The notes under the pieces are model-generated. The model worked only from the letters and a program-made list of their open reading frames with translations, ran no database searches and was not told where the DNA came from. From the NCBI GenBank assembly GCA_043812495.1, contig JBDRMG010000020.1, positions 1 through 47,932 of the forward strand: a DNA stretch of 47,932 bases, in the 5' to 3' direction. Positions 24,101 to 47,932 of this stretch are shown piece after piece. Source of the stretch: Candidatus Omnitrophota bacterium. GTDB lineage: Bacteria > Omnitrophota > Gorgyraeia > Zapsychrales > JBDRMG01. Numbering within the stretch: the first letter of the stretch is position 1; the number at the start of each line of letters is the position of its first letter. The position numbers were made by a program, and so were the translations under genes.

Positions 24101-27100
24101 AAAGAGAAAAGCACCGACATTATTTTTCGGATATCTACCTTTTAAATAATGCATGCCTTCTTGTAAGTTTCGTAATGATTCGCCAAGATCAAGATATAAA
24201 GAGGTTTCTCCGCACGCCGATTCTTTAACCATAAGACCATTTCGCGCGATATGCTCAAGCTGATCCATGGTCAAAACCATGGGCCGGAACATCAGATTTG
24301 CGCCTTCTTGAGCGAATTTTTTAACACTCCTTTGGACTTTTGAATCAAGAAAGTTTTCATTTTTTAATTCATTGATGCTTGCAAACATGCATCGTTTTTC
24401 AAAGTATTCTCTAAAACTTAGACGATGAAATAAGTGTTGCTTAATTTTGTCCCAGTACTTAACCACCAAATAAACCACAACACCAAGCGCAAGCCCTATT
24501 GCTATCACCACATCCCAAAACGGCGAGAGGAGGGCGTAGGGGCTTATATTTTCAGAAGATTCAGGGGCGCTCTTTGGCTTGATCCAAGATTCATCCATTA
24601 TTGCCAAAGAGCGCCCCTGGTTATCTTTTAGTCCATATTGACTTTTTAAGCTGGCCATGTTATAGATTAAGAAGGAGGCGAAAAGTATGAAACTAAAAAT
24701 TGTGATAGAAAACGGCCAAGATGGATTTATCGTGGCCCATTGCCCTTCGCTCAAGGGATGCTGGAGCCAGGGCAAAACAGAAGCAGAGGCTATTAAGAAC
24801 ATCCGAGAGGCCATCCAGCTATACCTTGAGCCTGACCCCCAAGAAGTACGACCTGCCCCAAACCACAAAGTCCTAGAACTAGCCGTGTGACCCCTAAGCC
24901 ACCCCTTCTTTCCGGCAAAGAGATCGTAAAGGTCTTTAAGAAACTCGGCTTTTATCAAGTAAACCAAAAGGGCAGTCATATCAAAATTCGGAATGATTCC
25001 ACGTAAATCACTCTTATTGTTCCTGACCATAAAGAAGTTGACCGCTGGACTCTTAAAGGCATCCTGAAAGACGCGGAGATTTCTGCGGAGAAATTCATTC
25101 AACTTACCAAGTAATTTAGCTTTCTTTTTATCCCAATATCCGATTACCAAACAAATCACAACCGCTGCCAGAATAGCGGCTCCTAGGACAATATCCCAGG
25201 CCGGCGAAATGAGAGTCTGGACAGATGTCTTGCCAAAACCATCAGGGACGTCCTTCGCCGCGATCATAAGAGTGTCCCCTCCTGGGGACAGGCTTGAATG
25301 GCCGGCGAAGAACGTCCCTGCAACCTCAGGCGAAGCGAGTGTGAAAGAAATAAAATATCGGATGAGCCTAACGGCCAAGGCACCCAATAATAAGAACAGA
25401 AACATCTCAGGCAAGTCAACGAGAGACAAGATAGCTTGGTGATCAGCCTGCGAGTTTCCATCTTTGACTTCTTCCTGGGATAAGCTTTGTCTAATTTCAC
25501 GAGCAATTTTTCTTGTTAAATGAATAGTTCGATTCAAAATAATTACGATGATTACGGCCCACGCGAATGCTATCAAATGCAGATGGCTAATCCCCCGGAA
25601 TACAGAGCTGGTCACATCAATGATAAAAGGCAAGGCGATGGTTAGAATAAGCAGGAGAATATTCAACATGACTCTTGTTTTAGATTTGCACATATCCTTA
25701 AACACATATTTAAGCACTCGGAAAACAACCCTGATGGTACCAAAAACGCTTGATAAATTCTTTTCCAGCTCAAAGTTCAGCATCCTCTCTTCCTGAAGTA
25801 CTTTTAGTTCAGTTTTTAATCCCTCTTCATCGAAGGGCGGATGAATGCCTTGCTTTTCTAATATCAATTTGACAAGATCAAAGCTGTATTCAATGCTTTT
25901 GAAAGCTCCGATTTTGTTGCGTAAAATAAGAAAATCTTTCTCTCCAGGTTTACAGGTTTCCATTGTTTCTCTAAACAAGCTTCTTGCCTCTTGTGAAATC
26001 AAATCCCTAATCTGATGCCATTGATAATCATGCGCATATCCTTTGAAGAAATTAAGATAAGGATTATGCTTCTCTAATGTCTCTATCTGTGAGGACGATA
26101 AGTCACCATGACTGCATAAATCAAATAACATTGCATGTATCCCGCGGAGACTACTCATCACATCAAGAAGTTGACAAAGGAAAATCTTTTGCGATGGAGT
26201 TTCAATCTTCTTGATAGCTGAATCAAGATCTATCGTTAATACTTCCTTGGTCCTCTTATCTATTTGGTAATTACCATCATGACCTGAATAGTTTAGGAAT
26301 CCTGCATCGTGGAACTTTCTTAAAGCTATGCCTTTGGCTTTACACATTTTTGAATAAGCAAGGAGTATACTCATCAGGCCTTCTTCGAGATTTGACCATC
26401 CCCTTGCTTTCTCCATCGCCATCTTTTGAATAGTTTCGTCAAAACGTTCGTCGCTGCTATTTCTTACCCCTATCACAACAAATCCAATCTCTTCGTCAAA
26501 TCGAGGATCATCATACACGCCCCAGGCAACCGGGATATTCATTCCCGCGCCTTTTTCAAGGCCTTCTTCCATAATTTCATATTCATTTTGGGAGCGTTCG
26601 GCGCTTAAGGCGCCGCGATATTTCCTGTACCATTTTTTCAGAATAATATGCCGGCCTGTCTCATCCGAAGCAAATTCAAAATCCGAGGGCTCTTGATAGA
26701 TGACCGGCAGAGGCGGCGTGACCCTTCTTTTTGTCGCATAGACAACGCCTTTCAATTTCAAACTTTGAGCCGTGATTCTTTTTCCTCCCTTAAGTCTATC
26801 CCGAAGGGGCTGACCTAACTCTATATTGGCATTTCTTCCCGGCTCGCGTGCCTGCGATAATATTTTCCATGTCGCTGTTTTGATTATTTGATCTTTGACC
26901 TCTTCGGGAAGAGTCAGTTTAGGATTGAAATGAATTTCTTTGATTTTAAGAGGAAGGTTTCGCTTGGCTATCTGCGCCTGAATCCATACGTCTAATTTCA
27001 AGAAAGAAAGAATTCCGGATATCGGCCTGATCGACATCATCGCGAATAAACCAAAACCGGCAATCAGTGTTCCGCCCACCGGCGGGGCCTGAGCCCAGGC

Positions 27101-30100
27101 GGTGAGGGCCTGGAGATACTGGAGGACAAAATCATTGAACAAGAGCGCTATTAATGCCGCGCCTGCCCCCATCCAATCCAAAGCTCCCAAAAGGCACAGG
27201 GCGGGTCCTTCCGGCGTGCTTGAATCGCTTGAAATTTTTTCTTTTGCTTTTTTCTCTTGTGCTTTCCTTTTCTTTATTTCTTTCTCGACTTCCTTCTCCA
27301 ACGCCTCAAGAGTATCTTCATAGAGGTCGACATCAACTTCAGACAATGGAAGACGATAGATTCTCTCATGTTCATTAAGCTTCAATATGGCCCCAAGCAG
27401 ATTCTCGTAAATTTCCCAGGCCTCACCTAATCTCCGTTCGCAAATGGCTTTGTCTAATTCCTGAATATAATTGTCTACAGGCTCTCGAAAAGAGGCCATG
27501 CCGGTTTTCTTATACAGTCCTCCGCCATTGATGCGCTCGCGCAAGGCCAAAAACCGGTCCATGGGTCTGCCGGCCAAGATATGAATAGAATATTCCAGCG
27601 ACAACTCAAAAACAGGCTCAAGGTCGCGTATAATGGCGGCCGTGCGTTCAAATTTGTCTTTTTCCGGCGTCTCTAAGCACCACTCGGCTTCATCCAAATC
27701 TCTCTCGATTGTTTCGACAAACATTTCCTCAAAGGCGCGGACTGCTTGCTGCTGCCGGAGCGTCATGCGTCTCTCCAGCATCTCAAAGAAAGAGAGCGCT
27801 CTTAGTTTGGTAAGCCTGTCCGCGGCGCCTCCAATGACCACGGGAAGATTGGTCAGGCCTTTGGTTGTGAATTCCATGGAAACCTGCCCCAGCTGCGCGG
27901 GGAGCAGGGTCCTGTCCGGGTGCAGAAGCGGGCCGAATTCAATTTTTATATTATCCGCGGCCTCATTAATCGTTTCGTTACGATCCCGATAAGCATTCAA
28001 AAGGCCGGACAACGTATCCCCAATGCATGCCAGCTTTTTCGTGTTCAAATTATGGCCGTCAAATTCAAAAATATCTTTTTGCGACTCAATCTCAAGTTGC
28101 TTGAGAAGGAATAAAATAACCTCGAGAGGCACAATTCTTCTGTCGCGCCAATTGATATTCTTGTGCCTTACGATTTTTGCAAGAATATTTTCAATGTCTT
28201 TTTCTTCGGGAATGACTACTTTTTTGGCTTGGGCCTTTCCTCCTAAAAGCAGAGGCTGACCCGCCTGGCCTCCCAACATTCTGGAATTCGAAGGCGCGGT
28301 TGCCTGTGTTTGCGTTTCGATCAGTTTGATGGCATGTTCCAGGCCGTATTCCCTGAACTCTTGCTGCAGTTCCCGCACTTTTTCTCCCAGATTTCCCGGG
28401 TCGGCGCCTTCGACAAAGGCGGCAAATTCTATGTTGGCGCCGACACGGAACATGAGTACTTTGAGCTCCTCCACTCTCTCCCGGATATGACTGATGTCCG
28501 GCTCAAGCTTGTACTGCGTAATCTTGATGAGAAGCTCATTCTCATCCCTATCGAGCCTATCGGTCGCTTCTTCGATATCGCCGTGGGTTTTCTTTAAAGC
28601 GGCGAGTATTTGCGGGACCTCTTCCTTGATGCGTTCGACTTCCTGCCAAAGCGCAAACCATTCTATTCTCTGCGTTAATACATGCGCATCGAGTCCGAGA
28701 CCATAAGCGACTCTATTTAAATCGCCTCTTTGCTGGCGCAAAGTAACGAGGAGATCGATAAACTCTCTTTCGATGATATTCGGTTGATGCGCAAGACCCA
28801 AGGCCTCCAGCCTCTCTTCGAATTCTTTTTGATCGGCATTAAGGATTGAAGCGGCTTTGGCCAATGAACCCCGGGCTCGATAGAGGGCTCTTATGGCTAT
28901 TTCCTCTGTAATGGTCTTTGAGTCGTCCACGGGTTGAGGTTTGGCCTCACCTTCCTCTTTAAGAACAATGACCATGCCTATTTGCGCGGATCTTTGCTCT
29001 TCTTCCACGATCGTATATCGGCGCAAAGTTATTAGCGCATGTTTCGGCACGCCTTTGGATGCGACGCGTATTTTTCTGTATGCTAAGACAGGTTTTTGAC
29101 CGTCACTGCAGGCGTCTTCCCATAAATCAGTTATTCTATCGGCTTGTTCTTTTATGAGCTGGCTTTTTGTGTTTCCTTCTCCTATTTCAAGCGTCGGTAA
29201 ATCGAATATTTCCAAGAACGGATTAATTTCTCTGTGGATGATTTGCCAGACACGACCATCCGTCATTTGAGCGAGCTCTCCCAATGTTTCTTGTGTCGGA
29301 TAAATACCGAATTCTGCATAATAGGCTTGATGAATATGGAGAACTTTTCTTTGCGCATCCTGAAGAAGTTCCCAATAGACAAAGCTGAAATTCCTCCGGT
29401 TGGATGATTTGGCTTCGCTGCGCATTAACGCTTCGGTAAGACTGGGTACAAAAGATTCTTCTTTCAGCATTCCTGCCAAGCAAGAGCAGAGCATGAGGAA
29501 TTGAGGGACGTTCTTCGCCGCAAGTCCATGGATGTCCCCAAAAAGGGACAGGCTTATGATCAAGGCGAAGAACGTCCCTAAAGTAATAATCATGACGTTT
29601 TGCTTGCGGGACAAAATGAAAGTGACAATTAAAATCCCAAGGACACCTAAGACAATCATAAGAACATCGCTTTGACACAAGTCAAAGAATGGGAACCCAA
29701 CAACGCACAACGTGCTCCCAGAAATAATACCAAGTATCTCATCTAGACTTCTACCCTCTTGGCAAATTTTTTGGATTTCATTGGCTGTGGTCATTGTAAT
29801 ATTTGCCTGCCCATCGACTAACTCTTTGATGATGTATTCAACGTCCTTTACTCTAGTGGATTGAATATCTTGATGGCCTCCTATGGCAATCGCTATTTTG
29901 CTCCGCATAAGACCACCTTGTCTTGTCGGAGAAAATTTCTTTTCTTCTAATTGGTCTTTGATCCATGTTGTAATGTCAAATTTCATCCTACGGCTTTCAG
30001 AAAACTTCACTGCAAAGGTTTCTTCTCTCTCTTTTACCTCTGCTACAGCATCTTGTTCTTCTTGCGCTCCCTCAACTTGTGTAATCCCGGGTTCTGTTAT

Positions 30101-33100
30101 TTGTGCTTCCTCAACTTCTTCTCGTTCTGGAACTCCGGGCGCTGTTGCTGCCGCTTCTTCCGTTTCTTCTATTTCTCCGGCTTCGGGTTCTGTCACTTGG
30201 CCTTCAATCTCTTTATCTTCGTCAGCAGGTATCTCTTCTTCTTTTGAAAGGACAGGCGAGCCTCCGCGAACAGATTTGGGTTCTTCCTCAACTAGAATAT
30301 ATTTTCTTAAAACGGCCAAAGGTCCTTTCGGCACACCTTTTGACGCGATCCGTATTCTTGTGTATGGGAAAGCCGGTTTCTGGCCGTCGCTGCAGAGGGT
30401 TTCCCATAGAGTGCTCACGCTATTTATTTGTTTTTCGGTCAATTGTTTTCCTTTACCCTTTCCTTTGGGCTCAAGGGTTGGCAGATCAAAGATTTCTAAG
30501 AATGGATTGATTTCTCGATGGATAAACTGCCAAATCCGCCCATCAGTCATTCCAGCGAGCTGTCCTAAGGCTTCTTGTGTTGGATATTCACCAAATTGCG
30601 CATAGTAGGCTTGATGGAGACGGAGTACTTCTCTTTGAACATCTCTTAAAAGGTGCCAATAGACAAAACTAAAATTCTCTCGAGTGGCTGATGCAGTTTC
30701 GCTATCGATTAACTCTTTTGTCAGGTGAGGGATAAAGGGCCAGGCTCCCCATGCTTCCATTTTCAAGACTGATTCCTCATCAATTAAAGGAGACGGGCAT
30801 GATTCTAACAGCTTGGCGATTTCTTCAAATTTCTCGCCTTTTCCTTTGTTTTGTTCCTGCGCGATCAGTTCTTTTTGTTTTTGAATGATGCGCAAAGCCG
30901 TCTTAAGGTTATCGTCAAAAACATCCAGAAGCTGTTTCAAATTGTTCGCCCCGGGCCGCAGAGCGCAAATACCCGCAAGACTCAGTTTTATATTTTCAAT
31001 CGTTTTCACACCCTCGAGGATATAATGAACCTGCGCATAACCCAAAAGTGCATCCTGGTCAAAGTCTTTAAACGTATGGGTCAGTTTTTTGATTATCGTA
31101 AGCGTAACTTTTCTCATTCTGCCTTTATACCAATAAGCCGTCTTCTTGCTGGAAATACTCGGAAGGCCCTTAAAATATTCATTGATGAAATAATCGTATA
31201 TTTTTTGGTCGCTCCACTCGTCAGCATCGTCTGCTCGAAGGAAGGCAACTAAACATAATCCCGCAAAGAACAGACCGAGAATCCCTAAAATCGATGGATC
31301 GCCGTACCCTGTCCATCCATAATGAGCAGGCAAAGCATCCTCCGACCGGCTCCTCTTCATTCCTGCGGGCGCGAACCGTCCCGACGCCTCCATCTCTTTA
31401 AGATCGGACCAGAAATAGACACCGATTTGCTCCTCACCGGGCCCGCAATTGGAATCCACCTCTTGGCCATCCGCATAAACAACATATCTGAGACCGCTCA
31501 ACTTGAGAGCTTCTTTGTAGGTCTTTATTTCTATATGCGGATCTTGCGCTGGGCGATGGATGGCCTCTTTGACCGCTTGGAAAATATCACCTTCGGGGAA
31601 GCAAGGAATAAATTTAATTTGCTCACCCTGAGGTTTTTCTCTGTCATCGCGCACGGGCAGATGTATTTCCGTATATCTATTTGCATCTGTGGATGCTCTC
31701 TCCTTATTGACTTTCTCTTTATTAAAGGAACGGTGGAAGTCAATATTAGGTCTTCTTTCTCGTATAGAGAGAATATTATTGACTGTTCCATTAATAAGGA
31801 AAAGACCAATAAAGCCTGAAACAATTTGCTGGAACGTTGTTAACAGACAGCAATAAATATAATTTCCGATCATAACAAAACAGCTTTGTTTATTGTGAGC
31901 CAATTTTAATGTGAGCCATGCATCACTGAGAACTCCCCAAGGCGCAGGCACGCTCTCAATATCCGTGAAAGCCAATCGGCCTGTTAGGACTTGTCTTTGC
32001 TCGCTTATTTCGTTAGCATGATTTGTATTGTGAATCTCGGTTAAATAAATTGGGATTCGCTTCTTACCCAGAACACCGGCCAGGCAAAGCCCAGCCAACA
32101 CAAAGCCGAGAATCCCCAGGACCGTAACATCCCCCAGGAGGAAGAATTCATGGATAAGCTCCTTATTTGAATGCGCTGAAATAAGAGGCCTGATGCTTTT
32201 TCTTACCGGATAACCCCGGTTTTCTTCCAGCAAGTTCTGGTAGCAATACTCAAGCGCCCAGGCAAAATCAGCCGCGCGCTCCCCTCGAGATAAAAAGAAA
32301 CCTGCCTGGTGAACCGCGCACAGCAGAATAGCCTGGGGCTGGTCCGTATCCGTCAAAACGTCCAAGAGAAGCTGAATGCCTTGCGAATCACCAAGCCTTG
32401 AGACAAGGACAAAGAGGGCCCTGGCGCGTTTTTCCGCCGATTGGTTTGTGTCGAGCCATTCGTTCCGGATGATTTTTCCGGCCGCATCGTCATGAATGAA
32501 TAACAGGCGCGCCAGAACATTTTCATACACCCTAAGATCGTCCGTATTTAACGCCTTGCGAAGCCGCTTAATAATCCATCGGCCGTAGCGGGGGTCTTGA
32601 TTGGCAATGGATACCAATGGCTCTGTTTGGACATGCAGGGCCAACCAAGTCTGCTTGGTCTGCTCAATCAGAATTTCAACGACTTCCCGATCATAATGGT
32701 TCGAGAGGATGCCCATGATTTCCGCTTTGGCAAAGGGATGCGTGTCTGCCGTGCGCCAATAAGCAATCAGCCGCATTTTGATTTGAGCGTCCATCCTTTG
32801 GCTGAGCAGTTCAGCCGCCTTTTGTCGCACGTCCATATTTTCATGGCTCAAGTCCTGAATGGCCCGGTTGATAACGCGCCTATAATAGGAGCCGCGCACG
32901 CAAAAACGCGTATCAGCGTTTAATAAACCTTTTAAAACACTATAGGCCTGTTTTCTTAAGAGGGATCGTTCTTCACGCTGCAATACAAAAACAAAGAAAA
33001 CAAAACTTTTCGGCGTCGCCTCTTGGCTTAATAACCTTGCCAGGGACTGTATTTTGGGAATGGTTAGATGAGGATACTGTCCTTGGAGAGTTTGAAGGCT

Positions 33101-33664
33101 GATGTTCTCCTGGATATATTTGGCCATAAAAGCAATGATGGCGGGCGGCGTGTTTTCACGCATTTGTCCAAGGAGGGCCTCCAGGGCTTCATCAGGCGAA
33201 TGCAAACGGGCAAGCAAAGCATAAATTCTTTTCTGATCTTTTGGATGACTGGTTGTTATCATTTCTTCAAGATGCGTCAAAGTCATTTGCCTCATAGCCG
33301 GCAAACTGTAAGACCCGGCCAAAGCATCCGATGCCGCCTGTCGTCTCTGCGGATTTGATGATATGCTTTGGGCTAATAAGTATTCCTTTGAGGTTTTTGT
33401 ACCCACGGCCGCCAGAGCGCTCATGAGAGGCGATAAGTGTTCACGTAGAGTAACACTTTCTATTGCTTCTATTAAATGACCGGACAATTGATTTTTCTCC
33501 TTATCTTTCTTGATTCTTTCAAGCGCACCCAAAAAGAGGGCCGGAACTCCTGAAACCAAATCTTGAATAATTTGTTCATGGGTATCCAATGATCGCAAAA
33601 TGCTGACGGACTCTTTCGCAAACAATCCTGGCAAGGTCCCACATCTTGCGCGGATAACTATCAT
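2..33664 (-). CDS. Giant modular membrane-anchored protein, segment 2 (3'-partial, at least 11,221 codons; absent from the ORF track)
   Basis: Frame opens after TGA 33671-33673; first ATG 33662-33664 (MIVIRARCG...HEQIIQDLVSG). No TTA/CTA/TCA in plus triplets at positions 2 mod 3 in any stretch read. The track has no minus ORF in this frame below 33.6 kb, as expected for an ORF running off the edge. Many recognisable domains lie in this frame. Confidence 0.9.
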   Translation of the reverse strand, partial: MIVIRARCGTLPGLFAKESVSILRSLDTHEQIIQDLVSGVPALFLGALERIKKDKEKNQLSGHLIEAIESVTLREHLSPLMSALAAVGTKTSKEYLLAQSISSNPQRRQAASDALAGSYSLPAMRQMTLTHLEEMITTSHPKDQKRIYALLARLHSPDEALEALLGQMRENTPPAIIAFMAKYIQENISLQTLQGQYPHLTIPKIQSLARLLSQEATPKSFVFFVFVLQREERSLLRKQAYSVLKGLLNADTRFCVRGSYYRRVINRAIQDLSHENMDVRQKAAELLSQRMDAQIKMRLIAYWRTADTHPFAKAEIMGILSNHYDREVVEILIEQTKQTWLALHVQTEPLVSIANQDPRYGRWIIKRLRKALNTDDLRVYENVLARLLFIHDDAAGKIIRNEWLDTNQSAEKRARALFVLVSRLGDSQGIQLLLDVLTDTDQPQAILLCAVHQAGFFLSRGERAADFAWALEYCYQNLLEENRGYPVRKSIRPLISAHSNKELIHEFFLLGDVTVLGILGFVLAGLCLAGVLGKKRIPIYLTEIHNTNHANEISEQRQVLTGRLAFTDIESVPAPWGVLSDAWLTLKLAHNKQSCFVMIGNYIYCCLLTTFQQIVSGFIGLFLINGTVNNILSIRERRPNIDFHRSFNKEKVNKERASTDANRYTEIHLPVRDDREKPQGEQIKFIPCFPEGDIFQAVKEAIHRPAQDPHIEIKTYKEALKLSGLRYVVYADGQEVDSNCGPGEEQIGVYFWSDLKEMEASGRFAPAGMKRSRSEDALPAHYGWTGYGDPSILGILGLFFAGLCLVAFLRADDADEWSDQKIYDYFINEYFKGLPSISSKKTAYWYKGRMRKVTLTIIKKLTHTFKDFDQDALLGYAQVHYILEGVKTIENIKLSLAGICALRPGANNLKQLLDVFDDNLKTALRIIQKQKELIAQEQNKGKGEKFEEIAKLLESCPSPLIDEESVLKMEAWGAWPFIPHLTKELIDSETASATRENFSFVYWHLLRDVQREVLRLHQAYYAQFGEYPTQEALGQLAGMTDGRIWQFIHREINPFLEIFDLPTLEPKGKGKGKQLTEKQINSVSTLWETLCSDGQKPAFPYTRIRIASKGVPKGPLAVLRKYILVEEEPKSVRGGSPVLSKEEEIPADEDKEIEGQVTEPEAGEIEETEEAAATAPGVPEREEVEEAQITEPGITQVEGAQEEQDAVAEVKEREETFAVKFSESRRMKFDITTWIKDQLEEKKFSPTRQGGLMRSKIAIAIGGHQDIQSTRVKDVEYIIKELVDGQANITMTTANEIQKICQEGRSLDEILGIISGSTLCVVGFPFFDLCQSDVLMIVLGVLGILIVTFILSRKQNVMIITLGTFFALIISLSLFGDIHGLAAKNVPQFLMLCSCLAGMLKEESFVPSLTEALMRSEAKSSNRRNFSFVYWELLQDAQRKVLHIHQAYYAEFGIYPTQETLGELAQMTDGRVWQIIHREINPFLEIFDLPTLEIGEGNTKSQLIKEQADRITDLWEDACSDGQKPVLAYRKIRVASKGVPKHALITLRRYTIVEEEQRSAQIGMVIVLKEEGEAKPQPVDDSKTITEEIAIRALYRARGSLAKAASILNADQKEFEERLEALGLAHQPNIIEREFIDLLVTLRQQRGDLNRVAYGLGLDAHVLTQRIEWFALWQEVERIKEEVPQILAALKKTHGDIEEATDRLDRDENELLIKITQYKLEPDISHIRERVEELKVLMFRVGANIEFAAFVEGADPGNLGEKVRELQQEFREYGLEHAIKLIETQTQATAPSNSRMLGGQAGQPLLLGGKAQAKKVVIPEEKDIENILAKIVRHKNINWRDRRIVPLEVILFLLKQLEIESQKDIFEFDGHNLNTKKLACIGDTLSGLLNAYRDRNETINEAADNIKIEFGPLLHPDRTLLPAQLGQVSMEFTTKGLTNLPVVIGGAADRLTKLRALSFFEMLERRMTLRQQQAVRAFEEMFVETIERDLDEAEWCLETPEKDKFERTAAIIRDLEPVFELSLEYSIHILAGRPMDRFLALRERINGGGLYKKTGMASFREPVDNYIQELDKAICERRLGEAWEIYENLLGAILKLNEHERIYRLPLSEVDVDLYEDTLEALEKEVEKEIKKRKAQEKKAKEKISSDSSTPEGPALCLLGALDWMGAGAALIALLFNDFVLQYLQALTAWAQAPPVGGTLIAGFGLFAMMSIRPISGILSFLKLDVWIQAQIAKRNLPLKIKEIHFNPKLTLPEEVKDQIIKTATWKILSQAREPGRNANIELGQPLRDRLKGGKRITAQSLKLKGVVYATKRRVTPPLPVIYQEPSDFEFASDETGRHIILKKWYRKYRGALSAERSQNEYEIMEEGLEKGAGMNIPVAWGVYDDPRFDEEIGFVVIGVRNSSDERFDETIQKMAMEKARGWSNLEEGLMSILLAYSKMCKAKGIALRKFHDAGFLNYSGHDGNYQIDKRTKEVLTIDLDSAIKKIETPSQKIFLCQLLDVMSSLRGIHAMLFDLCSHGDLSSSQIETLEKHNPYLNFFKGYAHDYQWHQIRDLISQEARSLFRETMETCKPGEKDFLILRNKIGAFKSIEYSFDLVKLILEKQGIHPPFDEEGLKTELKVLQEERMLNFELEKNLSSVFGTIRVVFRVLKYVFKDMCKSKTRVMLNILLLILTIALPFIIDVTSSVFRGISHLHLIAFAWAVIIVIILNRTIHLTRKIAREIRQSLSQEEVKDGNSQADHQAILSLVDLPEMFLFLLLGALAVRLIRYFISFTLASPEVAGTFFAGHSSLSPGGDTLMIAAKDVPDGFGKTSVQTLISPAWDIVLGAAILAAVVICLVIGYWDKKKAKLLGKLNEFLRRNLRVFQDAFKSPAVNFFMVRNNKSDLRGIIPNFDMTALLVYLIKAEFLKDLYDLFAGKKGWLRGHTASSRTLWFGAGRTSWGSGSRYSWMASRMFLIASASVLPWLQHPLSEGQWATINPSWPFSITIFSFILFASFLIYNMASLKSQYGLKDNQGRSLAIMDESWIKPKSAPESSENISPYALLSPFWDVVIAIGLALGVVVYLVVKYWDKIKQHLFHRLSFREYFEKRCMFASINELKNENFLDSKVQRSVKKFAQEGANLMFRPMVLTMDQLEHIARNGLMVKESACGETSLYLDLGESLRNLQEGMHYLKGRYPKNNVGAFLFQIRGPYTGDDLLLENVPFDLPVTDIVLDLQYDHKKKEFMDATDGFKEMVSCTMMENYYQQKVQEPNLLPKSPEYLNDTLRTMLTLIKKGLEFSQAGDAIKEALSKTESLIAQLRFMNTASALGLTTCTKCISNLSCNKIDGDDCSGCSPEKPQFTPSQIRAFTSVAESIKSILSVYLDSAKKQKDQEQLSQEINKIVEEICQLDCAQSGQSGPGDSVAVYILPWANAPPAVVIGLVAALILAGLSLLYLAFFKKTSKQDILPVDALYTGRLFIFQKICRVTDWNIGFVNETEGPGHDTTFTVEIPNKQRIPDILNLAWLDEQANILKDAARGILAPQAREILKDPKKVRGLSVIKFILLYHQILNYYFIPHINAIPEHINFDIEQIVGAEYLKQYLRTREGGWIGHVVREHVLLPIVKEFVLYMLEQEDFWKARLQKKDKKEIRELMTCTVKDFYEKDDVFEERKKDIFLIIFEICRQFKIISNDLSSRLWIYCLLPGDEHEFSNLAARAISKCDLLGIDCEDCYDRLNLMADQAFQQAAAFLQAKNQNTAQAVKRYRKSFDCAAKIADLEAKSYSSVTWPAYSIPFELGVLKSQGVDVGLVLKALHISESSLPLFDVPVFPRKNTDRKTGTVPASFEDRGGDCPYVQNNNALVWPFVIGGVALIIAVALALKYWRTARNRLCAIKNECQDLPAQWLFNLGFYQGEEERRWDTVGYGALMAVIFIVVSFLRIFNIEAPLKFELSSAVTIISILGMTVLFLLTVPLVFVLSRTVCGLRTMRAIRKSHRRLPYAQEVIQIIRSPIKPHVVAAVALLGLDAICLWGHAPVWMRLLVYLSMAIQIFFIGCLKDSNELGIRALRENEIEYDNLVEEINTTLALDLSEYRLKYLRKILRKCQAHEDIIAEGKEGLTKAAVMQPLIDYLEKIIKDAENRILSSTPEGPGHSDEGNVTYCILPLAMMPSVDVIAQGSGFGLEFLQDIMPWFNAPPMELISGSLQNLGTLQLSDFSLSTILLVTVIFILVVFIILQIILSRKTADQEILSAFQNPRIVEYLERATVINFQSAGMTEHEAMKLWRIISRSRNLAEAKSAIYEAGFTFRESGSRFGRIYQTRGDQERLESAFDVMQEKVKDYLGGGVIADIGCGDDLGLGRIILENVKDVYEYTGTDIRPLKISLEDEDPRLKFELQTRESKVPVKDRRADIVIINAGLHHARKNVPSKLIAESHRIARDQGIVLVVEDCVLPQDHPDYNEVLFDGHGLIEKFSRLTDKEQKQVLAVLCWFNNQVVAGKADMPLARNHKTYEEWIRRFEKAGFEVVKVVFIGIYPNTIFNSTHVLFILKKKKQGSFSYSLPHRRMFILLSIAALAVLGLLLAVPYFFDGLPLLSFWNHLSVLAFPVFGIIGESNANRKREDEELLKAALGEKGFELMERIGEGNQGIVFKAKKTDGSIVAVKVQKTDARKNFDEKTVNKIIKNAGSHKRVVIFDHMNSVDVDGRKRPYIVMEFFEGKNMHQAWRDGDLRKLSFYDLVRILIQVADARTHLYKNGIRQLDDSLTNVLIDQELKTVKLCDYDTPSSWTFGCKNTYILKRLLSRMLMLSDEKHVVLNEYRIAETWFDEQPLSKNEYEFVWQVASIVRNAYKNPIQYQSADAIIGELQEALNKNLIQTKIQGLDQGRASPLNTRKFLTPELEAYRQRLIARLDKTSNGFARWLIFGPAALFVNRRTPFWKGQEPSSEEPVFWGLDPNNLIRPSRRLYLSDSLSLKGCGGAGLCVHGDKREDWPILVENAQTPTHVLQYGADAGYLKTEMENGLSFAYLLEQVWGQEESRDLSIPLGIKKLLSVVCCGREMNLRTYFYQLTDSVLNVILRKELFDMRDLMLSVEKNYYVRKFLRHAQPSQLICAHSSAMRVDLLGPLLEKQDERNHYLQQQGFKVYSSVSDTQQCANALIRLIDNIFEEILLRYKKPDFDSSLYRFTDEYLAKVFSENKEVVRQTYFSIVRSIAIKMGTLWAVGGQTGGDAVAERNVGLRKGRAILHDIDGRINCVPNTRTITFQEREFRDGFLEDRNAINHTLWRIRELLNIDQATLDKGDEIYGQTLMSAVRATHERVLQNPHQRVLNPQYVQAYLKWLREVDIDKLDFLLCFHNAFLLHKNLAQGRVEQIEREPCQFNLLMPVVGDCGIWIIFSLLALAIGTVRASGRKLSSEKQPENRLSRFVRKTLVLFLCVWYRKNQEQVNSRLHQLHEKGYISNHYWADTRQILREILFVAMWFIGAEFAYYANLVFLYRFYPAELSPIKLLVGCLLVGIVNGVIPIIHSLSHIMTAWRIEEANERKGILLPSASQRIRAVRAPVRTHRFFATAGILLAASAIGVFMYGNTHPGDKHFVIRLIVQYFPWIFAISMGTIGHIVEFLLALIGPSDGKAARAIDRYRGDYEFFRETVTYIAENKDMDLRERILKLKAVIQTAKRKNRAIQEDEIRDYRAIQEDEIRDFGQGIHENHPALNVLGVLIDYAEGLLKELRRQEKDREMSGGYAGDIMAVKGDYEFPGLDDGRVQRVQATKIMAHLNPKQRRKFFEEVFRVLVDGGQLRITEIDNQVCKIGCPKTIVDELIAVGFIVQPEDIYQVRFSDGSMCIRIEASKPRRKGSSRNSGISQLLALGAWETGLIAGAVLLAALFIVLRRTIAKWMADRAPPSVLAALGKIKSEISNAKIFMTAALIPAMVDWFFKIYVWIMIPATVHISQPGDGTGALDHTVIENYRILAKHIIHILGGHVSLDHIVNPQTFDRLSTLILYAIYISMSVAFMKLFTIKNRPGRILFHLALGISISGYLTRISEYIFIGPTRDWLASDVVVSDLADISTRFYHPLICGCIIALGALFISRLAKQVIGKRRARPSHQPDDTADAPENKPGQHSLFITFGGWEMAAMALVMVGLVIRDSVMELLERSAMENHPETRKTMLDKAMDEAGDDPVRLAVYRHLAKYYNYTRRPQDTIRVLESAIAEAEKMKQSALENDHEFIEEIDVDNRGLLINTLGRDGDYNRIWDIAKESAEIYPHRDTFRGFLAKVIKVMDQEGKTEEAITLLRRAIHESPSTSIYYRLLGRVYEARGRTRELVYILAEAVTHVSDEESQIFSKILSSTINILRKSGKNDEALEYLDIMIDSLPHDDFFRSKRADILMEMERYQEALQYLDKDIDHNAGDGAFRCQRAQALIALGRFEEASANLREEVKDPRFCNDPIFWTLLITVLRRRGSPKEAQEEVLREALKRCPGDPQLNVMARTNRLPGYIDPNDPDGLLSRCEIGFFLPDGLEGVMGEWGVLIGLAAGFLVFGIAMVQNRREHSPEEIRSFFEALNEIYPLYLEHRVSVVGCYIDFSHPASSLPTNFCRKVKDLHGRFPAIMEDLYQCDDAYGDLIFTPQGETMVLLGASGSGKTSLATTFIKDHKFSFGCHDYLRIFSLSKKLFAAPKYQSPGTIKTKTGLAGNVDVIKRVGSLKYIVCLISIDTDRFVIEEVNSMNSISYFGLWLVPHMNRIGPINTENVRAFRILVPNYYQTSKIEGYEFEGMRFQPNYHLMAKMICEKISSKPNPVACLDVLSLVNLESILGEWGVLLGLLFVLLVYRAGINPQEASYREAFEEWKKTGNPENFISRQDRDEFQLIHYNRINHHAATLVENFNTSGMDIRMGTFDLLRSFGYTQIFEERFGGNYKDLLGSFIDGSGALILDMARFAAHHFALIGNSVSCFLRFPEFENKFTRLIVEILHEKRKKGERQVTILVPGCAFGQEVVSWAWILETIVKAKVSDFRNFSFKLVGVEKRKDIFRLASFRLAKGFDILTALTRGHILDVQGIMRRLNAMQEINQNLLFYQKNIQLIHGQIPSLEFSGLLEEADLLILNYLWYLLDRSEKRKVIQELNKVLWPRGRLRLLTRDGIDAKWIFSSATAHKDSPIYYSVFAIDGTGFLMMIMAFSMLAVALRVVSTGDHQEEEFDFGEFLESVADGKIPQDEALSVLSAMGPDALCELDRAMYAVMTYPKEQQRIAAVRLLGAIRTNEAMDQLMLALVHMIRSFGKERTGRKFRERTEEELEEVKNSLVAYGDQLVGRICDEEMFLWAYAVEADYAHHLADILARINTPQARKCLRDLKQWAVLERVLQEKRFVPSGFLRKTSYAVTNGIDNYGPGLPNDMVPFVRLLKRHVRIHPVPLFESRIPFKPIRIFKDLLQNYVLQNRLVEELIRKFEDDPYAQSSKDIVVLCCQEAFELWVQAIEQKDYPVSTIVAIDGKMRSERDTINSSHLKNIIHLSTETPVCSSIRKRQFQNIRTTRIRMPGSGCSIFDSIDYWPFMIGVILRASNPHSLECYLEEKGAKFGDNEIMVDAGQISIKDRLEAGDCKILVAPLFVGFESLGIEWRWLLSLIMLAFVVGMVKIKQRQQHSHRKIKPRPLLFHLLTEHFGVEGLKDEDEMMKILNYSAGNGKGVFVILDSAADAPREDIGKSAELKIKQLNGDRGVGSYEGSMQYMGKAKTAIQYIKVSLLIVSNQALWKPYSKLYPHHQRPEELFQDGDPNPDLKLALKAAHEVVVNRRSPRKKKDTDQVEKPMNEVLAARRLKQFRTRAEELARRLQGIKDWAEDGEIRNVERLSEDLEAQISDFENTPHQQSAGCVNAAIKALSGALNSIDRNIQTARERAIVSFEERIEQIRSGAKGLNVTIKHVDFRERFSGIRSRRIFDERCAEINRELNQVCEEIEEVRAKMQEIKTAHEKKLFQEVSKGLLLLLEATKDVEKIIKRSLKTLGDILDRYVDRKTEEGDWQIRRDNLTTMQGDLSRISDELKKTIQDFLDNEEIPRKRRMIQLRTQVIDLFLTNMNRPRLSMNSSTATLKQESESNFQAGSFEKSPEKLLLGTGTFERNANAITKFGNISRSPIGQISVFGMTPDRFHRVELGRVGREPFNLDSVTMFLEELPEDLGLVNSPTVKDEDNLSPSFSQESFQKSENFEGVNVIGVDGEVKIELLAAGRNADGADNRKSIMFLGLTLNGRLSPQRPRPTDNGLQHEPALVNEDQYLFSPVLTSARSSFATLRPSCDPARERFAPAFDNSTPAFVISARHDLGESRFQNVSLLPSRFAPASTTGLRTRVLEDPAREVPGAFVSASKIADSRDADGADTSSHLSRNPGRFSSTSLSSAGLLPILRLLPMASCPAPAKRWPCVFVARSLLESLVVSYIYLYLKKVNIGIEKINKDMEAKASSLICKHIVETVFVLFQDGLGKRRAFFIQLFRALKAFDFKAIGWLTGTFFGTFRNTMRLRRLFAGLGSEGWRWGMRARQSPQRGCRANILDLAVVTLILETVAAYQNYTDEDIPSFLVKIRENIEAKDFTLTRKGMFHVTIVKMLRKLHKAGRLTLGCSIGFPVPSGLSSPGIFDRLWQTGSAGELLLVLGFLAILGILAMIIIVKRAQGPPAEKKANAWSLFVFRAPAGALSIAVFGLIIIFFGPLGLIALTSTVAGGGALAALSSLGPAALSFLHIFSLIPLAGMVKIGTMENQEEPYRIENHKIGVVYIRDGTLVEKMHIVFTATAIAARKYIKEENRQKYPLEYLINKFFEYSGLNVRQKLMKFEQEHGQGILASLDDIVELYNEYIERDYESVGLFKGSEQLLKKLQASGVRQFLISGYPDEDIQRWLKTELGKKIGQYLIAYGERKENGVIILEKGKSQFDYIRGKHGIERFYFVADATSEIELMRRAKADLNLTLIGFANAISPELVSRAVEEITRKKATINIRKLRLPEHYQIEKTLNNAGADKTVNNMGELEGYFLSTGSKKGDAQEAGDSVFRRFVVPQSGQFSSKIIHIWDGEQPTRELLGDADIVIIGEPDDTGAIKNLGRPGAKFGPHEVIKYLIDRAELSLAGKENIGELIIVYLGNIKVSEYNPQKHKLISSQYGGPYPDIIADTYRNVEAVFSEIQKINPHITILAIGGDHGFAHPNFYTFKGRKGIVVADAHLDARSMTSRTSGRMDGYSSGTPFYATMTREGSNVSSENLHYIGVIDKAQFFNSRLRFLMSKGLTMENIHLLEEVKNRHREGKLDLLIKQIFQRLENNGIDTIHTSICMDVVNRQEAPGRSAKNEDGVPGEVILRLAYQAGKNPSVRLFDIFETAPPLDRENKTSKLVAGTIFGFFQGARHAIRVMPLTLGREYIFEWPSASAVQNWFNLPYIRRYPHRIHRRIITLFGTREIGYPEVNAGIEISAFDTAPLATIQERQKSGRYFAIRIQCELYFIDIGERHFEEIRILPVSTQPRVRGRGWWEGPRNEVLERFVEAFGPLSAIWEPVPAFKHDPPAWARTNNNIASPSMCSLGCFVLPETVVIIVIILTAFFIWQRMIRGPDVDRNQRTDYRKQSELRGQAGYIKWSFALTASCFIVIILGPLGLLSHQLSAISGQIGPAALGLSAAEALSIAPLVPVAPLEMFATFLAAGLVGMVDGEDQKPKIDFDTVLDVWLRALSEQAEKFFSGDEEFLIAFWQWEVEVIRNLERLINLAQDRSLQYIWKQQDPSINEMIGKLSTLSEKLKSLVNGVWKRGDLGLPLEMLPQAKSIMEMPIPFIEELRDKVLALGDTAFKDKVNRFKEDTELVVRSIRYISSCLDEYIKVWYDSKPPTAPEDTTSVDCFVVSPAVVGLVLLGILAYSIWQMAYGSQLYPRPYTLYALPIAATLLLVITPAFLPPALGMVDGDLSSSQSIDKFTHQLFDLLKTLRENKGQHNAFERNVYFTASRRVVKILQMHLDWDLSQEEEPKCPAFVNLLMTLGEDFLAGNKDRKDYTTILRSALGKLIERYGSKQDESEVLVFLGQWPAQIEERDIASQLGEVATAILKYAKGEEVSRIDMLGTLGIEVQSFKEEEKDINSLLSDLGSLDYSAVTGALRRIGSISEENLRVEDMPEDIIKGIALLQELNNRIRRYLNSYDFYPDSFGPGLGILDEFGKEVISIFKEILGVTTNAIILNAAWLLITQYYIFPNDKSREGHPVLWGPREATKRSVIIVRTKRFILNIRAFHPIMPREAVIELTQDVGESKDDLVVFDVLWLDDETLTFYSYPRNVVDKEGEFQESHAGDWYKYTDKEVDMTERLNRDERAAASLRGSLGKSSDSAEGFLRIDLPEDEKEFVKAKSQLAESAYGVSYERLLTDEIIRVVRFLVEGGINLDKPLSLYDSAIDMFARRDIKVWNTMPIRQFLSEVDKGISERSGFGCFLLPVAVGVGMMTMILIAYFIWQIRIRAPVETQIDADCRHRLTQMIKPRGQVVKRWQPPEARPRLGRRPRRASLAKGGMGDGRWEISPISNLQSNIYYRLLAITAAFGLALGIFIIFAPGLHGSAGALAVSQLAFPIVTVGMIRIDRQQIDEKELIYAAKWYLRILRENISAHLAKLKEQFDGLESKILERIFDKNLYSFKSMAGTLRMADKTLYKVFLGMVVRLIKTEKGLRDYVKAAAKLRSELKEEIALSREDYYILAQLLYLARDKNPERIKQLIGLAPAALKTKRLTEETLGRMRRCLDEISKGTDIKDMAVRFAVERLHPKSESDQNRALKDLKAEDYNDIVSDGIYGYLNCFFRIPEMRKEFVEFKKKLERLAEEDVRVVNGFAMQAVRDLSEAEFEKLNSAYHMLFGVQSSQVDFNKRKQILRGQRKALRFIRQGGGIDRKRIPERGFYPHHLDPVPPNVIAYPDILDQIIVMLNGTKKYPRVLASDCTKMRAYLINLRAEELEALISRYPGLCERIRELYPYYLRAIKFKIEARDIDTDIIRLIAADNTGVEIAKSLHMRTSTAAFAINKVLSIFWLDSARIDHYLAVCQERLDSNSAWSIEELYEFWRHKDMQKILTDEQKQRLAQIKEDLRTRTGFNLFEHMLKTYQLTDVYPSDMIDALLRRFYERTPDKEDRKRIFESCGLSRRQINYLDIVYGGTDKAGEGRLKIYGYREEAAGRIGVDIHTISYNLSVAKGVIGHEVLDVLFYFAEYPVACHGDVRPAKQGEISPKIKDFGRKGESRTLRSSNMKRSEIFERSRVRYSA
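3..166. repeat. Multi-hairpin MITE/REP-like element translated in frame
   Basis: Outer IR gccgaatacc (3-12) / ggtattcggc (157-166). Inner hairpins: aactctac..gtagagtt, cgcccaaaatc-ttt-gattttgggcg, cgccctgc-ttt-gcagggcg, ccccgtggc-aa-gccacgggg. Confidence 0.8.
5610..6620 (-). other. Formimidoylglutamase (HutG)/arginase-family domain
   Basis: GRPGAKFGP, GGDH (6227-6238), DAHLD (6155-6169), SGTPF, ICMDV..APGRSA, ETAPPLD. Confidence 0.88.
6720..7520 (-). other. HAD-like hydrolase domain (nucleophile Asp replaced)
   Basis: VVYIRDGTLV (cf. DxDGTL), LFKGSEQLLKKL..SG..FLISG, FVADATSEI, AGADKTV. Confidence 0.7.
8479..8970 (+). CDS. IS630 transposase orfA (HTH / winged HTH)
   Basis: 163 aa; SEVAEELGVARQTISWW HTH, GPQAHGY..LWTLERIA, LGWSCQKPER, W...WP motifs. 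Confidence 0.9.
   Translation: MRPQGTPEEIEQRRRKAIALLEQGKKPSEVAEELGVARQTISWWKRIVRDYGKDGLKCQPHPHRESQLSLKQRQKLQELLLQGPQAHGYADQLWTLERIAKVIKKHFGIGFHPSHVWRILQKLGWSCQKPERIALEQDHKKVEEWRKKTWPRLKRGKKGTGLH
8939..9487 (+). CDS. IS630 transposase orfB (DDE domain), probably joined to orfA by frameshift
   Basis: Frame opens at 8939. FIDESG (Asp 8969-8971, upstream of ATG 8984), LILDGWRVH and LPPYSPQLNPVE give an intact DDE triad. GGGGGAAAAAAG run at 8942-8953 in the overlap. Confidence 0.88.
   Translation, partial: NGGKKVLVFIDESGFMLQPVVRRTWALRGQTPIQRQSQKHDRLSVISAISVSSSRKKFNLYFTIHSDNIHSLEVLRFLERLLRKTRGKIVLILDGWRVHKAKILRQFFQEHRDRIQIEWLPPYSPQLNPVEPVWSHTKYADLANWAPADVAKLRYGVRVSLKRTCSKQKLLRAFFKTSGLEI
12330..13250 (-). 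other. CheR-type methyltransferase domain
   Basis: NSVSCFLRFPEF, VTILVPGCAFGQEVVSWA, KLVGVE, ADLLILNYLWYLLD, LWPRGRL. Confidence 0.75.
13400..14090 (-). other. P-loop NTPase domain (HPr-kinase-like)
   Basis: MVLLGASGSGKTSLA (Walker A 13823-13846) followed by FGCHDYLRI. Confidence 0.7.
14310..15300 (-). other. TPR repeat domain
   Basis: GKTEEAITLLRRAI..P, YRLLGRVYEARG, ERYQEALQYLD, RAQALIALGRFEEA. Confidence 0.85.
15480..15990 (-). other. Signal peptidase II (LspA)-like domain
   Basis: MVDWFFK, VSLDHIVNPQTF, LALGISISGYLTRISEYIFIGPTRDWL and VVSDLADIS follow the LspA motif order. Confidence 0.65.
16190..16620 (-). other. Partial class I methyltransferase domain (motif I not seen)
   Basis: VLIDYAEGLLKE, IMAHL...FFEEVFRVLVDGGQLRITE, ELIAVGF. 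Confidence 0.55.
16645..16710. repeat. Perfect 33-bp tandem duplication (11 codons)
   Basis: aatctctgatttcatcttcctgaatggctctat x2; IEPFRKMKSEI twice. Confidence 0.95.
16850..17340 (-). other. Degenerate site-2-protease (M50)-like membrane domain
   Basis: TM helices with IIHSLSHIMTA (cf. HExxH), ATAGIL (cf. AGP), LIGPSDG (cf. PxDG). Confidence 0.5.
17750..18860 (-). other. Kinase-fold domain, SelO/YdiU-like motif order
   Basis: LSLKGCGG near 18815-18835; later AERNVG...ILHDIDG. Weak motif evidence only. Confidence 0.35.
19120..19850 (-). other. Hanks-type Ser/Thr kinase domain
   Basis: IGEGNQGIVFKA (GEGNQG 19796-19813), VAVK, PYIVMEF, QLDDSLTNVLI, VKLCDYD. Confidence 0.85.
20070..20950 (-). 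other. Class I SAM-dependent methyltransferase domain
   Basis: VIADIGCGD (DIGCG 20672-20686), GTDI, ADIVIINAGLHH, ESHRIARDQGIVLVVE, EEWIRRFEKAGF. Confidence 0.85.
22165..22211. repeat. 16-bp inverted repeat (GGGACAGTCCCC type)
   Basis: agggacagtccccgcc / ggcggggactgtccct; translated GTVP...GDCP just before a TM linker. Confidence 0.8.
24562..24619. repeat. Perfect 17-bp inverted repeat upstream of the hicBA promoter
   Basis: caggggcgctctttggc / gccaaagagcgcccctg with a 24-nt loop. Confidence 0.85.
24638..24678 (+). promoter_or_regulatory. Sigma70-like promoter and RBS of hicBA
   Basis: TTGACT (24638-43), 17 bp spacer, TATAGA (24661-66) with TG extension; AAGGAGG 24672-78, 8 nt before ATG 24687. 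Confidence 0.65.
24687..24890 (+). CDS. hicB: HicB-family antitoxin (short form)
   Basis: 67 aa; GFIVAHCPSLKGCWSQGKTEAEAIKNIREAIQLYLE is a typical HicB core; strong RBS. Confidence 0.92.
   Translation: MKLKIVIENGQDGFIVAHCPSLKGCWSQGKTEAEAIKNIREAIQLYLEPDPQEVRPAPNHKVLELAV
24887..25114 (+). pseudogene. hicA: HicA-family mRNA interferase toxin with premature stop
   Basis: GTG overlaps the hicB stop (GTGA). MTPKPPLLSGKEIVKVFKKLGFYQVNQKGSHIKIRNDST*ITLIVPDHKEVDRWTLKGILKDAEISAEKFIQLTK; TAA at 25004-25006. Confidence 0.88.
25243..25320. repeat. Double-hairpin REPIN-like element, copy 3
   Basis: cagggacgtccttcgccg / cggcgaagaacgtccctg (1 mismatch); inner tgtcccc / ggggaca. Confidence 0.82.
25850..26800 (-). 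other. Kinase-fold domain (Kdo/WaaP/RIO-like, atypical catalytic loop)
   Basis: LKLKG, NEYEIME, LRKFHDAGFLNYSGHDGNY, VLTIDLDS. Confidence 0.55.
29000..30690 (-). repeat. Duplicated ~130-aa HTH-containing module (~30290-30690 and ~29000-29400)
   Basis: FSFVYW.LL...HQAYYA.FG.YPTQE.LG.LA.MTDGR.WQ.IHREINPFLEIFDLPTLE in both copies. Confidence 0.85.
29504..29579. repeat. Double-hairpin REPIN-like element, copy 2
   Basis: Perfect 16-bp IR agggacgttcttcgcc / ggcgaagaacgtccct; inner tgtccc / gggaca. Confidence 0.82.
32150..33600 (-). other. HEAT/armadillo-like repeat domain
   Basis: ALAAVGT...SSNPQRRQAASDALA, DLSHENMDVRQKAAELL, RLGDSQGIQLLLDVL. Confidence 0.7.
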
Positions 33665-47930: not shown

Positions 47931-47932
47931 CC
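47792..47932. repeat. 141-bp terminal direct repeat, right copy
   Basis: Identical to 1..141. Confidence 0.97.

Follow-up and report, generated by a model that had tools for sequence, protein, structure and literature searches.

Can a complete toxin–antitoxin (TA) operon, with a promoter of its own, lie inside and opposite to the unbroken reading frame of another gene? The existence of long coding overlaps in bacteria is disputed, and the evidence comes from few examples. The question is raised by contig JBDRMG010000020.1 of a Candidatus Omnitrophota bacterium (assembly GCA_043812495.1), all 47,932 nucleotides (nt) of which are referred to here as the window. On its minus strand, an open reading frame (ORF) at positions 2–33664 extends over 11,221 codons without a stop and reaches the contig end; its modules are split by membrane linkers. 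Antisense to this giant ORF, on the plus strand, lies a type II TA system, a hicBA cassette of ~480 bp from promoter to hicA stop. We find that the nested operon is real and that such nesting recurs across the order. Comparison of embedded with free copies shows that selection preserves the toxin as a protein and the giant frame merely as an open frame.

A hicBA operon nested in a giant frame

The original prediction placed a promoter, a ribosome-binding site (RBS), hicB and hicA opposite an unbroken giant frame. The frame is indeed free of stops, cassette included, and all parts of the operon except an intact toxin gene could be confirmed. The sigma70-like promoter (24638–24666) consists of a −35 box TTGACT (24638–24643), a 17-nt spacer and an extended −10 element TGnTATAGA, with TATAGA at 24661–24666. 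The RBS sequence AGGAGG (24673–24678) is followed by hicB (24687–24890), which is intact and encodes 67 residues matching PF15919 (E = 4e-7; 30.6 bits against a cut-off of 27). The stop codon of hicB overlaps by 4 nt with the GTG start of hicA at 24887. hicA itself (24887–25114) comprises 75 codons, is in codon register with the giant frame and terminates at a TAA (25112–25114) that is the typical end of the family. A premature TAA at 25004–25006, codon 40 of 75, interrupts it; on this point the prediction did not hold. Both halves of hicA match PF07927 (68.4 bits across this one TAA), and the Gly-Ser-His (GSH) motif of HicA is present. Structural matches were found for HicA (PDB 1whz, E = 3e-4) and HicB (PDB 2yzt, TTHA1756, E = 8e-5). 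HicB lacks a C-terminal DNA-binding domain, the PF15919 match spanning profile positions 3–53 of 123; its shortness is a trait of the subfamily, because free relatives have equal length.

The predicted promoter does not figure in the list from a consensus scan, which returned no site and requires the sixth base of the −10 box to be T. Its assignment rests on reading of the sequence and on conservation: 10 of 12 embedded homologues retain the pattern TTGAC/T, 17–19 nt, TA. Alignment of seven embedded homologues shows them to be alike from the −35 box to the hicA stop codon and not beyond. We also considered whether the reverse of the hicB start supplies the giant protein with a membrane helix. 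This idea was rejected as inconsistent, since the hydropathy is 1.86 in the window copy (borderline) and averages 1.45 among embedded and 1.06 among free copies.

Embedded TA cassettes recur across the order

How typical is this arrangement? Searches of 168 genomes gave 123 HicA matches, the best 76 of which we examined, calling a locus embedded if it lies antisense within a frame of at least 500 codons. Embedded loci number 23 of these 76; they come from 17 genomes of nine families, represent at least four HicA subfamilies and, in every case, have hicA codon-aligned with the host frame. In none of the 123 matches is HicA read as a segment of a long ORF; the open frames around it reach 178 residues at most. 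Other TA classes behave similarly: 10 of 30 loci of a PIN_3 subfamily (30 of 71 matches listed) and 15 of 30 loci of DUF433 pairs, one of them on a short contig, are embedded, both counts including the locus of the window genome itself. As controls, neither four-helix-bundle genes nor Y1 transposases were found embedded (0 of 30 each).

Among relatives of the HicA at locus L002, 7 of 41 genome loci are embedded. Of the best 80 HicB loci in metagenomes, four are embedded, including two that are 99.98% identical, and the remaining 76 are not. Embedded homologues occur in records titled Omnitrophota, and free homologues in records titled Planctomycetota, Desulfobacterales, Clostridia and archaea; no HicA relatives were found in viral contigs. 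The presence of free homologues in several phyla and in archaea led us to reject the possibility that the embedded TA genes are overprinted newcomers.

At several places, two or more different embedded cassettes lie within a few kb (L005:648–884; L057, ~190 nt behind hicA; L133/L084; L135/L294), which suggests that embedded cassettes may form clusters in several genomes.

Which frame is kept by selection

With two frames sharing the same DNA, which of them does selection maintain? We compared 12 embedded and 18 free cassettes of the window hicBA subfamily, omitting three duplicate loci, three frameshifted or deleted free copies (L113, L116 and L119) and the distant relatives of L002 HicA. The embedded copies contain no stops in the giant frame, against 63 expected by synonymous resampling. 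The free copies contain 64 against 95 expected, which makes this null ~1.5-fold too high on free copies and lowers the embedded expectation to ~42 if it is scaled. For the window cassette alone, resampling yields a mean of 5.4 giant-frame stops, with P(0) = 0.0013. In two of the 18 free copies, the antisense frame is free of stops throughout the coding parts. A free clade mostly titled Planctomycetota (L096, L099–L101 and L115) has 0–2 stops and groups, with weak support, among the embedded copies; it may descend from embedded copies that escaped, or it may be pre-adapted.

One pair of embedded copies, L216 and L220, is located on one metagenome contig, 16 kb apart, and is 81% alike over 832 bp. 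This likeness takes in both linkers: the module was duplicated while embedded, as linker–cassette–linker. In hicA of this pair, 24 of 27 differences fall at third positions of the TA frame, and the ratio of nonsynonymous to synonymous differences (pN/pS) is 0.04 in the TA frame and 1.73 in the giant frame; for the shared linker it is 0.33. Other embedded pairs have values of 0.14–0.20 (TA frame) and 0.9–1.4 (giant frame), similar to free pairs. In hicB, where third positions coincide, pN/pS cannot tell the frames apart (0.07 vs 0.08). The giant-frame peptide across hicA is 39.5% identical among embedded copies and 34.1% among free ones. The toxin is thus under purifying selection as a protein while embedded, and the giant frame is purged of stops, its peptide across the cassette being unconstrained filler.

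Paralogous linkers bracket the slot

The cassette had further been predicted to fill a module slot, like a cargo domain, between two homologous linkers. Linker B (24440–24526), on the promoter side of the cassette, and linker A (25121–25207) are both encoded in the giant frame on the minus strand, each as a membrane helix with a basic tail. They are identical at 14 of 29 residues, with 227 codons between them. The giant ORF has 31 listed hydrophobic segments, and among the 223 such segments of all giant frames in the genome linkers A and B are reciprocal best matches, with a score of 92 (next best 52; background 23.7 ± 7.1), in agreement with the predicted paralogy. In DNA they are only ~60% alike (35 differences in 87 nt).

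The slot idea gains from the other TA pairs of the genome described below. Intervals bracketed by paralogous linkers make up 11.7% of giant DNA, yet they contain all eight complete TA pairs. Counted by slot, alike flanks were found for 5 of 7 TA slots (an extra hydrophobic segment splits the slot of the eighth pair) versus 10 of 116 other slots, in a test designed after the flanks had been inspected by eye. An element resembling the insertion sequence (IS) IS630, two coiled-coil genes and an orphan antitoxin are all situated outside the linker-bracketed intervals. Since linker pairs of this type also bracket ordinary sense-strand modules, the cassette occupies a regular type of slot.

The surroundings of embedded copies differ from genome to genome. 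Flanks of the 12 embedded copies do not match between genomes, and left and right flanks resemble each other in three of them (the window copy, L004 and L108). A DNA search of 40 relatives with the giant-gene region beside the cassette recovered only the cassette, a hairpin repeat and one 33-nt match. No homologue of this region was found in metagenomes, where the best HicB match is 85%, and therefore no conspecific strain is present there. The cassette's giant-frame peptide was not found in any long protein among those of 269–2000 residues, a range uninformative for giants, and two giant pieces of 400–467 residues had no match in NCBIfam.

Two further features of the giant ORFs may be mentioned. 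In those of the window (2–47930, minus strand), hydrophobic segments at module borders are, as judged by eye, often preceded by Cys-x-x-x-Pro and followed by Pro-x-x-Gly-Met, which might signal processing or topology. At 33576–33664, a 4,784-codon upstream ORF ends within the start of the 11,221-codon ORF in another frame; this 89-nt overlap may reflect a coupled start, a frameshift or an assembly slip. Two giant ORFs on contig C63 overlap similarly.

Other antisense genes in the same genome

The assembly (1.94 Mb in 66 contigs, 90% complete) contains 282 kb of giant frames, or 14.6% of its DNA. A search for nested TA loci in other giant genes had been suggested in the original prediction; it yielded eight TA pairs in this genome, besides those across the order. 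The screen applied a coding model to 947 antisense ORFs, after which 28 selected candidates, 27 of them from the window genome, were scanned against Pfam. The eight pairs, all antisense in giant frames, are the hicBA cassette of the window, a second, intact hicBA (C53:22975–23409), four PIN-type pairs (on C53, on C65 and two on C42), DUF433+DUF5615 (C19) and DUF4258+DUF2283 (C63; DUF4258 below its cut-off). We presume that the last two are TA systems. The small neighbours of the four PIN toxins have no family match and are taken as antitoxins by position alone. TA pairs constitute most of the identifiable antisense genes in the giants of this genome. In whole-genome family searches, both HicA and all four PIN loci were located within giants, so that 6 of 7 HicA, PIN and ParE loci fall in the 14.6% of the assembly made of giant frames; PemK was not detected.

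Promoter-like motifs, as motif evidence only, accompany most antisense cassettes of the genome. Strict sigma70-like motifs in the giants number 15 in antisense vs 3.4 expected from codon shuffles, and 1 in sense vs 3.9 expected. Seven of the 15 are located at identified cassettes. The other eight have no identified gene (C53:20387, C65:8526, C65:12924, C65:44788, C63:4575, C63:33215, C45:8941 and position 12776 of the window) and are possibly remnants of lost cassettes.

The IS630-like element (8427–9570, plus strand) has a helix-turn-helix ORF (8479–8970), a DDE_3 ORF (8984–9487) and 23-nt imperfect inverted ends, and the giant frame is open along its entire length. At 31704–31813 there is a 110-nt repeat resembling a miniature inverted-repeat transposable element (MITE), which is in frame in the giant ORF and has ~30 matches in the genome, most of them 95–100% alike. 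Two similar small RBS-bearing ORFs at C11:13321 and C11:19717 (plus strand; L019) are on the giant's own strand in a shifted frame; the first (13321) has no NCBIfam match. The identity of 141 nt at 1–141 and 47792–47932 might indicate a circular element, an interpretation we rejected as the same sequence also ends other contigs and marks an assembly break. These terminal 141 nt are in frame with both giant ORFs and belong to a ~300-nt dispersed repeat found on C32, C39 and C63.

The toxin gene of the window copy is truncated

The premature TAA at 25004–25006 removes the C-terminal half of HicA. The giant frame remains open at this point because TAA reads TTA (Leu) on the other strand. In the 11 other embedded copies, hicA codon 40 is CAA, CAG, GAA or CGC. 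Contigs from small shares of three DNA runs of one study did not cover the site, and no joints were seen in them; the TAA may therefore be an assembly error. As it stands, the copy is in early decay, with its toxin truncated and its antitoxin and promoter intact, and it now serves only as an in-frame spacer and perhaps as an orphan antitoxin. Together with the differences between its linkers (35 of 87 bases), the truncated toxin makes it look like a spent module.

Across the order, 21 of 23 embedded hicA genes are intact. In all three decayed embedded cases the toxin was lost, either first or along with other parts. At L003, hicA has a TAG, and the promoter and hicB start are deleted in frame; at C53:7954–8184, an orphan antitoxin and promoter are kept, and the toxin is deleted in frame. 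Among relatives of L002 HicA, 6 of 34 free loci have stops or frameshifts. Decay is thus not peculiar to embedding, because free copies are broken as well.

Comparison with integrons

Are the giant genes stabilised by their cassettes in the manner of integron arrays, as originally suggested? According to the available parts of the relevant papers, TA cassettes carrying promoters of their own are over-represented in chromosomal integrons, and their loss kills the cell (PMC13108822, PMC8876359); when tested in an integron, a cassette promoter in antisense is able to silence the gene upstream of it (10.1101/2023.11.21.568050). As portrayed there, the Vibrio cassettes share with ours their own promoters, enrichment in a long modular array and a proposed anti-deletion role. 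Like the window cassette, one pair from Vibrio, parD/E3, is reported to have an oppositely oriented promoter. Unlike in Vibrio integrons, the host array here is a single translated ORF, which a cassette must leave stop-free on the other strand, and the cassette boundaries are protein-coding membrane linkers. Any likeness is functional only.

The giant array is not an integron. The best match to IntI (TIGR02249) scores 89.5 bits against a cut-off of 265 in this 90% complete assembly, the two tyrosine recombinases of the genome are ordinary and neither is on a giant-gene contig, and no recombination site common to the TA cassettes was found, although no dedicated attC model was applied. A stabilising role resembling that in integrons fits the cassettes as a class, given their enrichment, own promoters, opposite strand and selection on the toxin; the window copy, with its truncated toxin, does not fit it.

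A palindromic dispersed repeat (25241–25331; fold z −5.06) adjoins linker A and is in frame in the giant ORF. It is present at 14 places in the genome, eight translated in giant frames and six outside, and within the window it recurs at 29501–29581 and 45392–45481. We rejected this hairpin as a general attC-like site, as the other seven TA pairs lack it and six of its places are outside giant frames. Because of its absence beside the other TA cassettes, the hairpin is a neighbour of the cassette and not part of the mechanism. Rfam gave no match in the window.

How nested cassettes may persist

We incline slightly towards the view that the hicBA cassettes are addiction modules which occupy slots of giant genes and guard them against loss of modules. 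Giant genes would grow and reshuffle through linker-bounded modules, and a module between alike linkers could be lost by recombination without breaking the frame. A TA module expressed from its own antisense promoter, provided that its toxin is toxic, would resist such loss: cells that delete it would lose the antitoxin and become arrested. Deletions taking neighbouring modules along with the cassette would be penalised too, so that addiction would retain these modules as well. Cassettes would thus persist and limit deletions of the array, as in Vibrio superintegrons. Antisense placement would preserve the operon's own promoter, RBS and stops, and read-through across the cassette would keep the downstream modules translated. 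More tentatively, the giants could form an integron-like device in one frame, in which modules recombine and a pool of frame-transparent TA cassettes circulates and locks the array against collapse; we hold this to be conceivable, though doubtful.

A number of observations weigh against the addiction-module view. The copy in the window cannot addict the cell today, and linkers A and B have probably diverged too far to recombine often. The antisense frame of free copies is often close to open, and therefore a filter on insertion explains part of the pattern. Not all TA classes are used: none of 30 ParE/RelE-family loci is embedded, and in the window genome the single ParE, one of two DUF433 and three Polbeta matches lie outside giants. 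TA spacing is uneven, as the antisense survey found no pair on C65 beyond 11.3 of its 75 kb and none on C11 or C45. Non-TA inserts, namely the IS630-like element, two coiled-coil genes and two kinds of small repeat, are tolerated stop-free. The linker test was devised with the flanks already seen. Finally, the surveyed loci are mostly the best match per genome, kin genomes and loci are not independent, and support of 14–54 at the deep nodes of the embedded radiation does not fix the number of embedding origins.

Several of these points feed the main rival explanation, according to which giants are simply the insertion-tolerant, high-turnover landing pads of these small genomes. Whatever inserts with an open antisense frame would survive there, TA pairs would be retained because they spread themselves or defend against phage or stress, and the array would be left unprotected. 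The embedded IS630-like element, MITE-like repeats and coiled-coil genes would be expected under it, as would flanks unrelated between genomes, free relatives with just 0–2 antisense stops and an unconstrained host-frame peptide. Mere tolerance accounts poorly for the absence of embedded Y1 transposases and four-helix-bundle genes, for the predominance of TA pairs among identifiable antisense genes, and for their exclusive position between paralogous linkers, with the IS, the coiled-coil genes and the orphan antitoxin elsewhere. We regard this explanation as rather unlikely.

An improbable alternative is a regulatory one, in which antisense promoters damp or segment an mRNA of 30–100 kb, and the RNase activities of HicA and PIN link its turnover to stress, addiction being secondary. 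The excess of strict antisense motifs, seven of them at identified cassettes, agrees with such a role, as do the RNase families of the embedded toxins, the lack of embedded ParE/RelE and the silencing reported for an integron cassette promoter in the available part of 10.1101/2023.11.21.568050. Yet a promoter alone would suffice for regulation, whereas the toxin protein is strongly conserved (pN/pS 0.04–0.2), and the remaining motifs may be leftovers of decayed cassettes. Least probable is that the cassettes are inert fossils, silent when embedded, or that the giant frame is an untranslated, merely open shadow across them: the broken hicA of the window and the lack of amino-acid constraint on the giant-frame peptide across hicA would agree with this, but against it stand the missing stops (0 vs 63 expected, or ~42 after scaling), the in-frame shedding of DNA by decayed copies, the conserved promoters and the purifying selection on hicA that continued after L216 and L220 split.

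Relation to known systems

Both partners of this arrangement, HicBA and the Omnitrophota giants, are already known individually. Type II HicBA systems, as represented by S. pneumoniae HicBA in the available part of PMC6159526 and by PDB 1whz and 2yzt, have the same GSH-motif toxin, HicB N-terminal domain and single promoter for two adjoining, overlapping genes. The cassette described here differs from them in that its 67-residue HicB has no ribbon-helix-helix or helix-turn-helix domain, its hicA is truncated in the window copy and the whole operon is inside the reading frame of another gene. Omnitrophota giants of the Archaeovorin type (10.1101/2023.11.21.568195, 10.64898/2026.06.07.730766) likewise exceed 10,000 codons and, in the portions available, are described with many membrane segments and enzyme-like modules. 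The terms 'antisense', 'opposite strand' and 'reverse strand' are absent from the accessible main text of the former, and 'antisense', 'opposite strand' and 'nested' from the accessible text of the latter, which places TA genes beside giants or in variable regions, not within giants.

The closest precedent for the overlap itself is olg1/olg2 of Pseudomonas aeruginosa (PMC8850804, available in part), which are also wholly embedded in antisense and for which stop depletion also serves as evidence of selection. As presented there, however, olg1/olg2 are overprinted new genes and a single case, whereas here an old mobile operon has been captured, the host-frame peptide is the new and unconstrained partner, and the embedding of TA systems recurs across families. 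The literature searched, which covered few subscription papers, yielded no description of TA operons within giant ORFs; the recurrent nested-TA architecture was thus not found in print. New here are the TA identity of the nested genes, the counts by family set against controls, the distinction of selection between the two frames and the tie to linker pairs.

Implications

The present analysis adds dozens of loci at which whole operons of known families, promoters included, are located inside another ORF, and at which sequence alone separates a frame selected for its protein from one selected for its openness. These loci bear on how genes of 30–250 kb are built and maintained in small genomes. 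Some of the sequence regarded as 'dark' in giant proteins is in fact that of other genes, read from their reverse strand. TA counts for Omnitrophota are probably too low wherever gene callers drop nested genes. If the giants do act as integron-like devices, TA operons would regularly form a second layer in these genes that is left unannotated, and annotations would lack natural dual-coding loci by the hundred.

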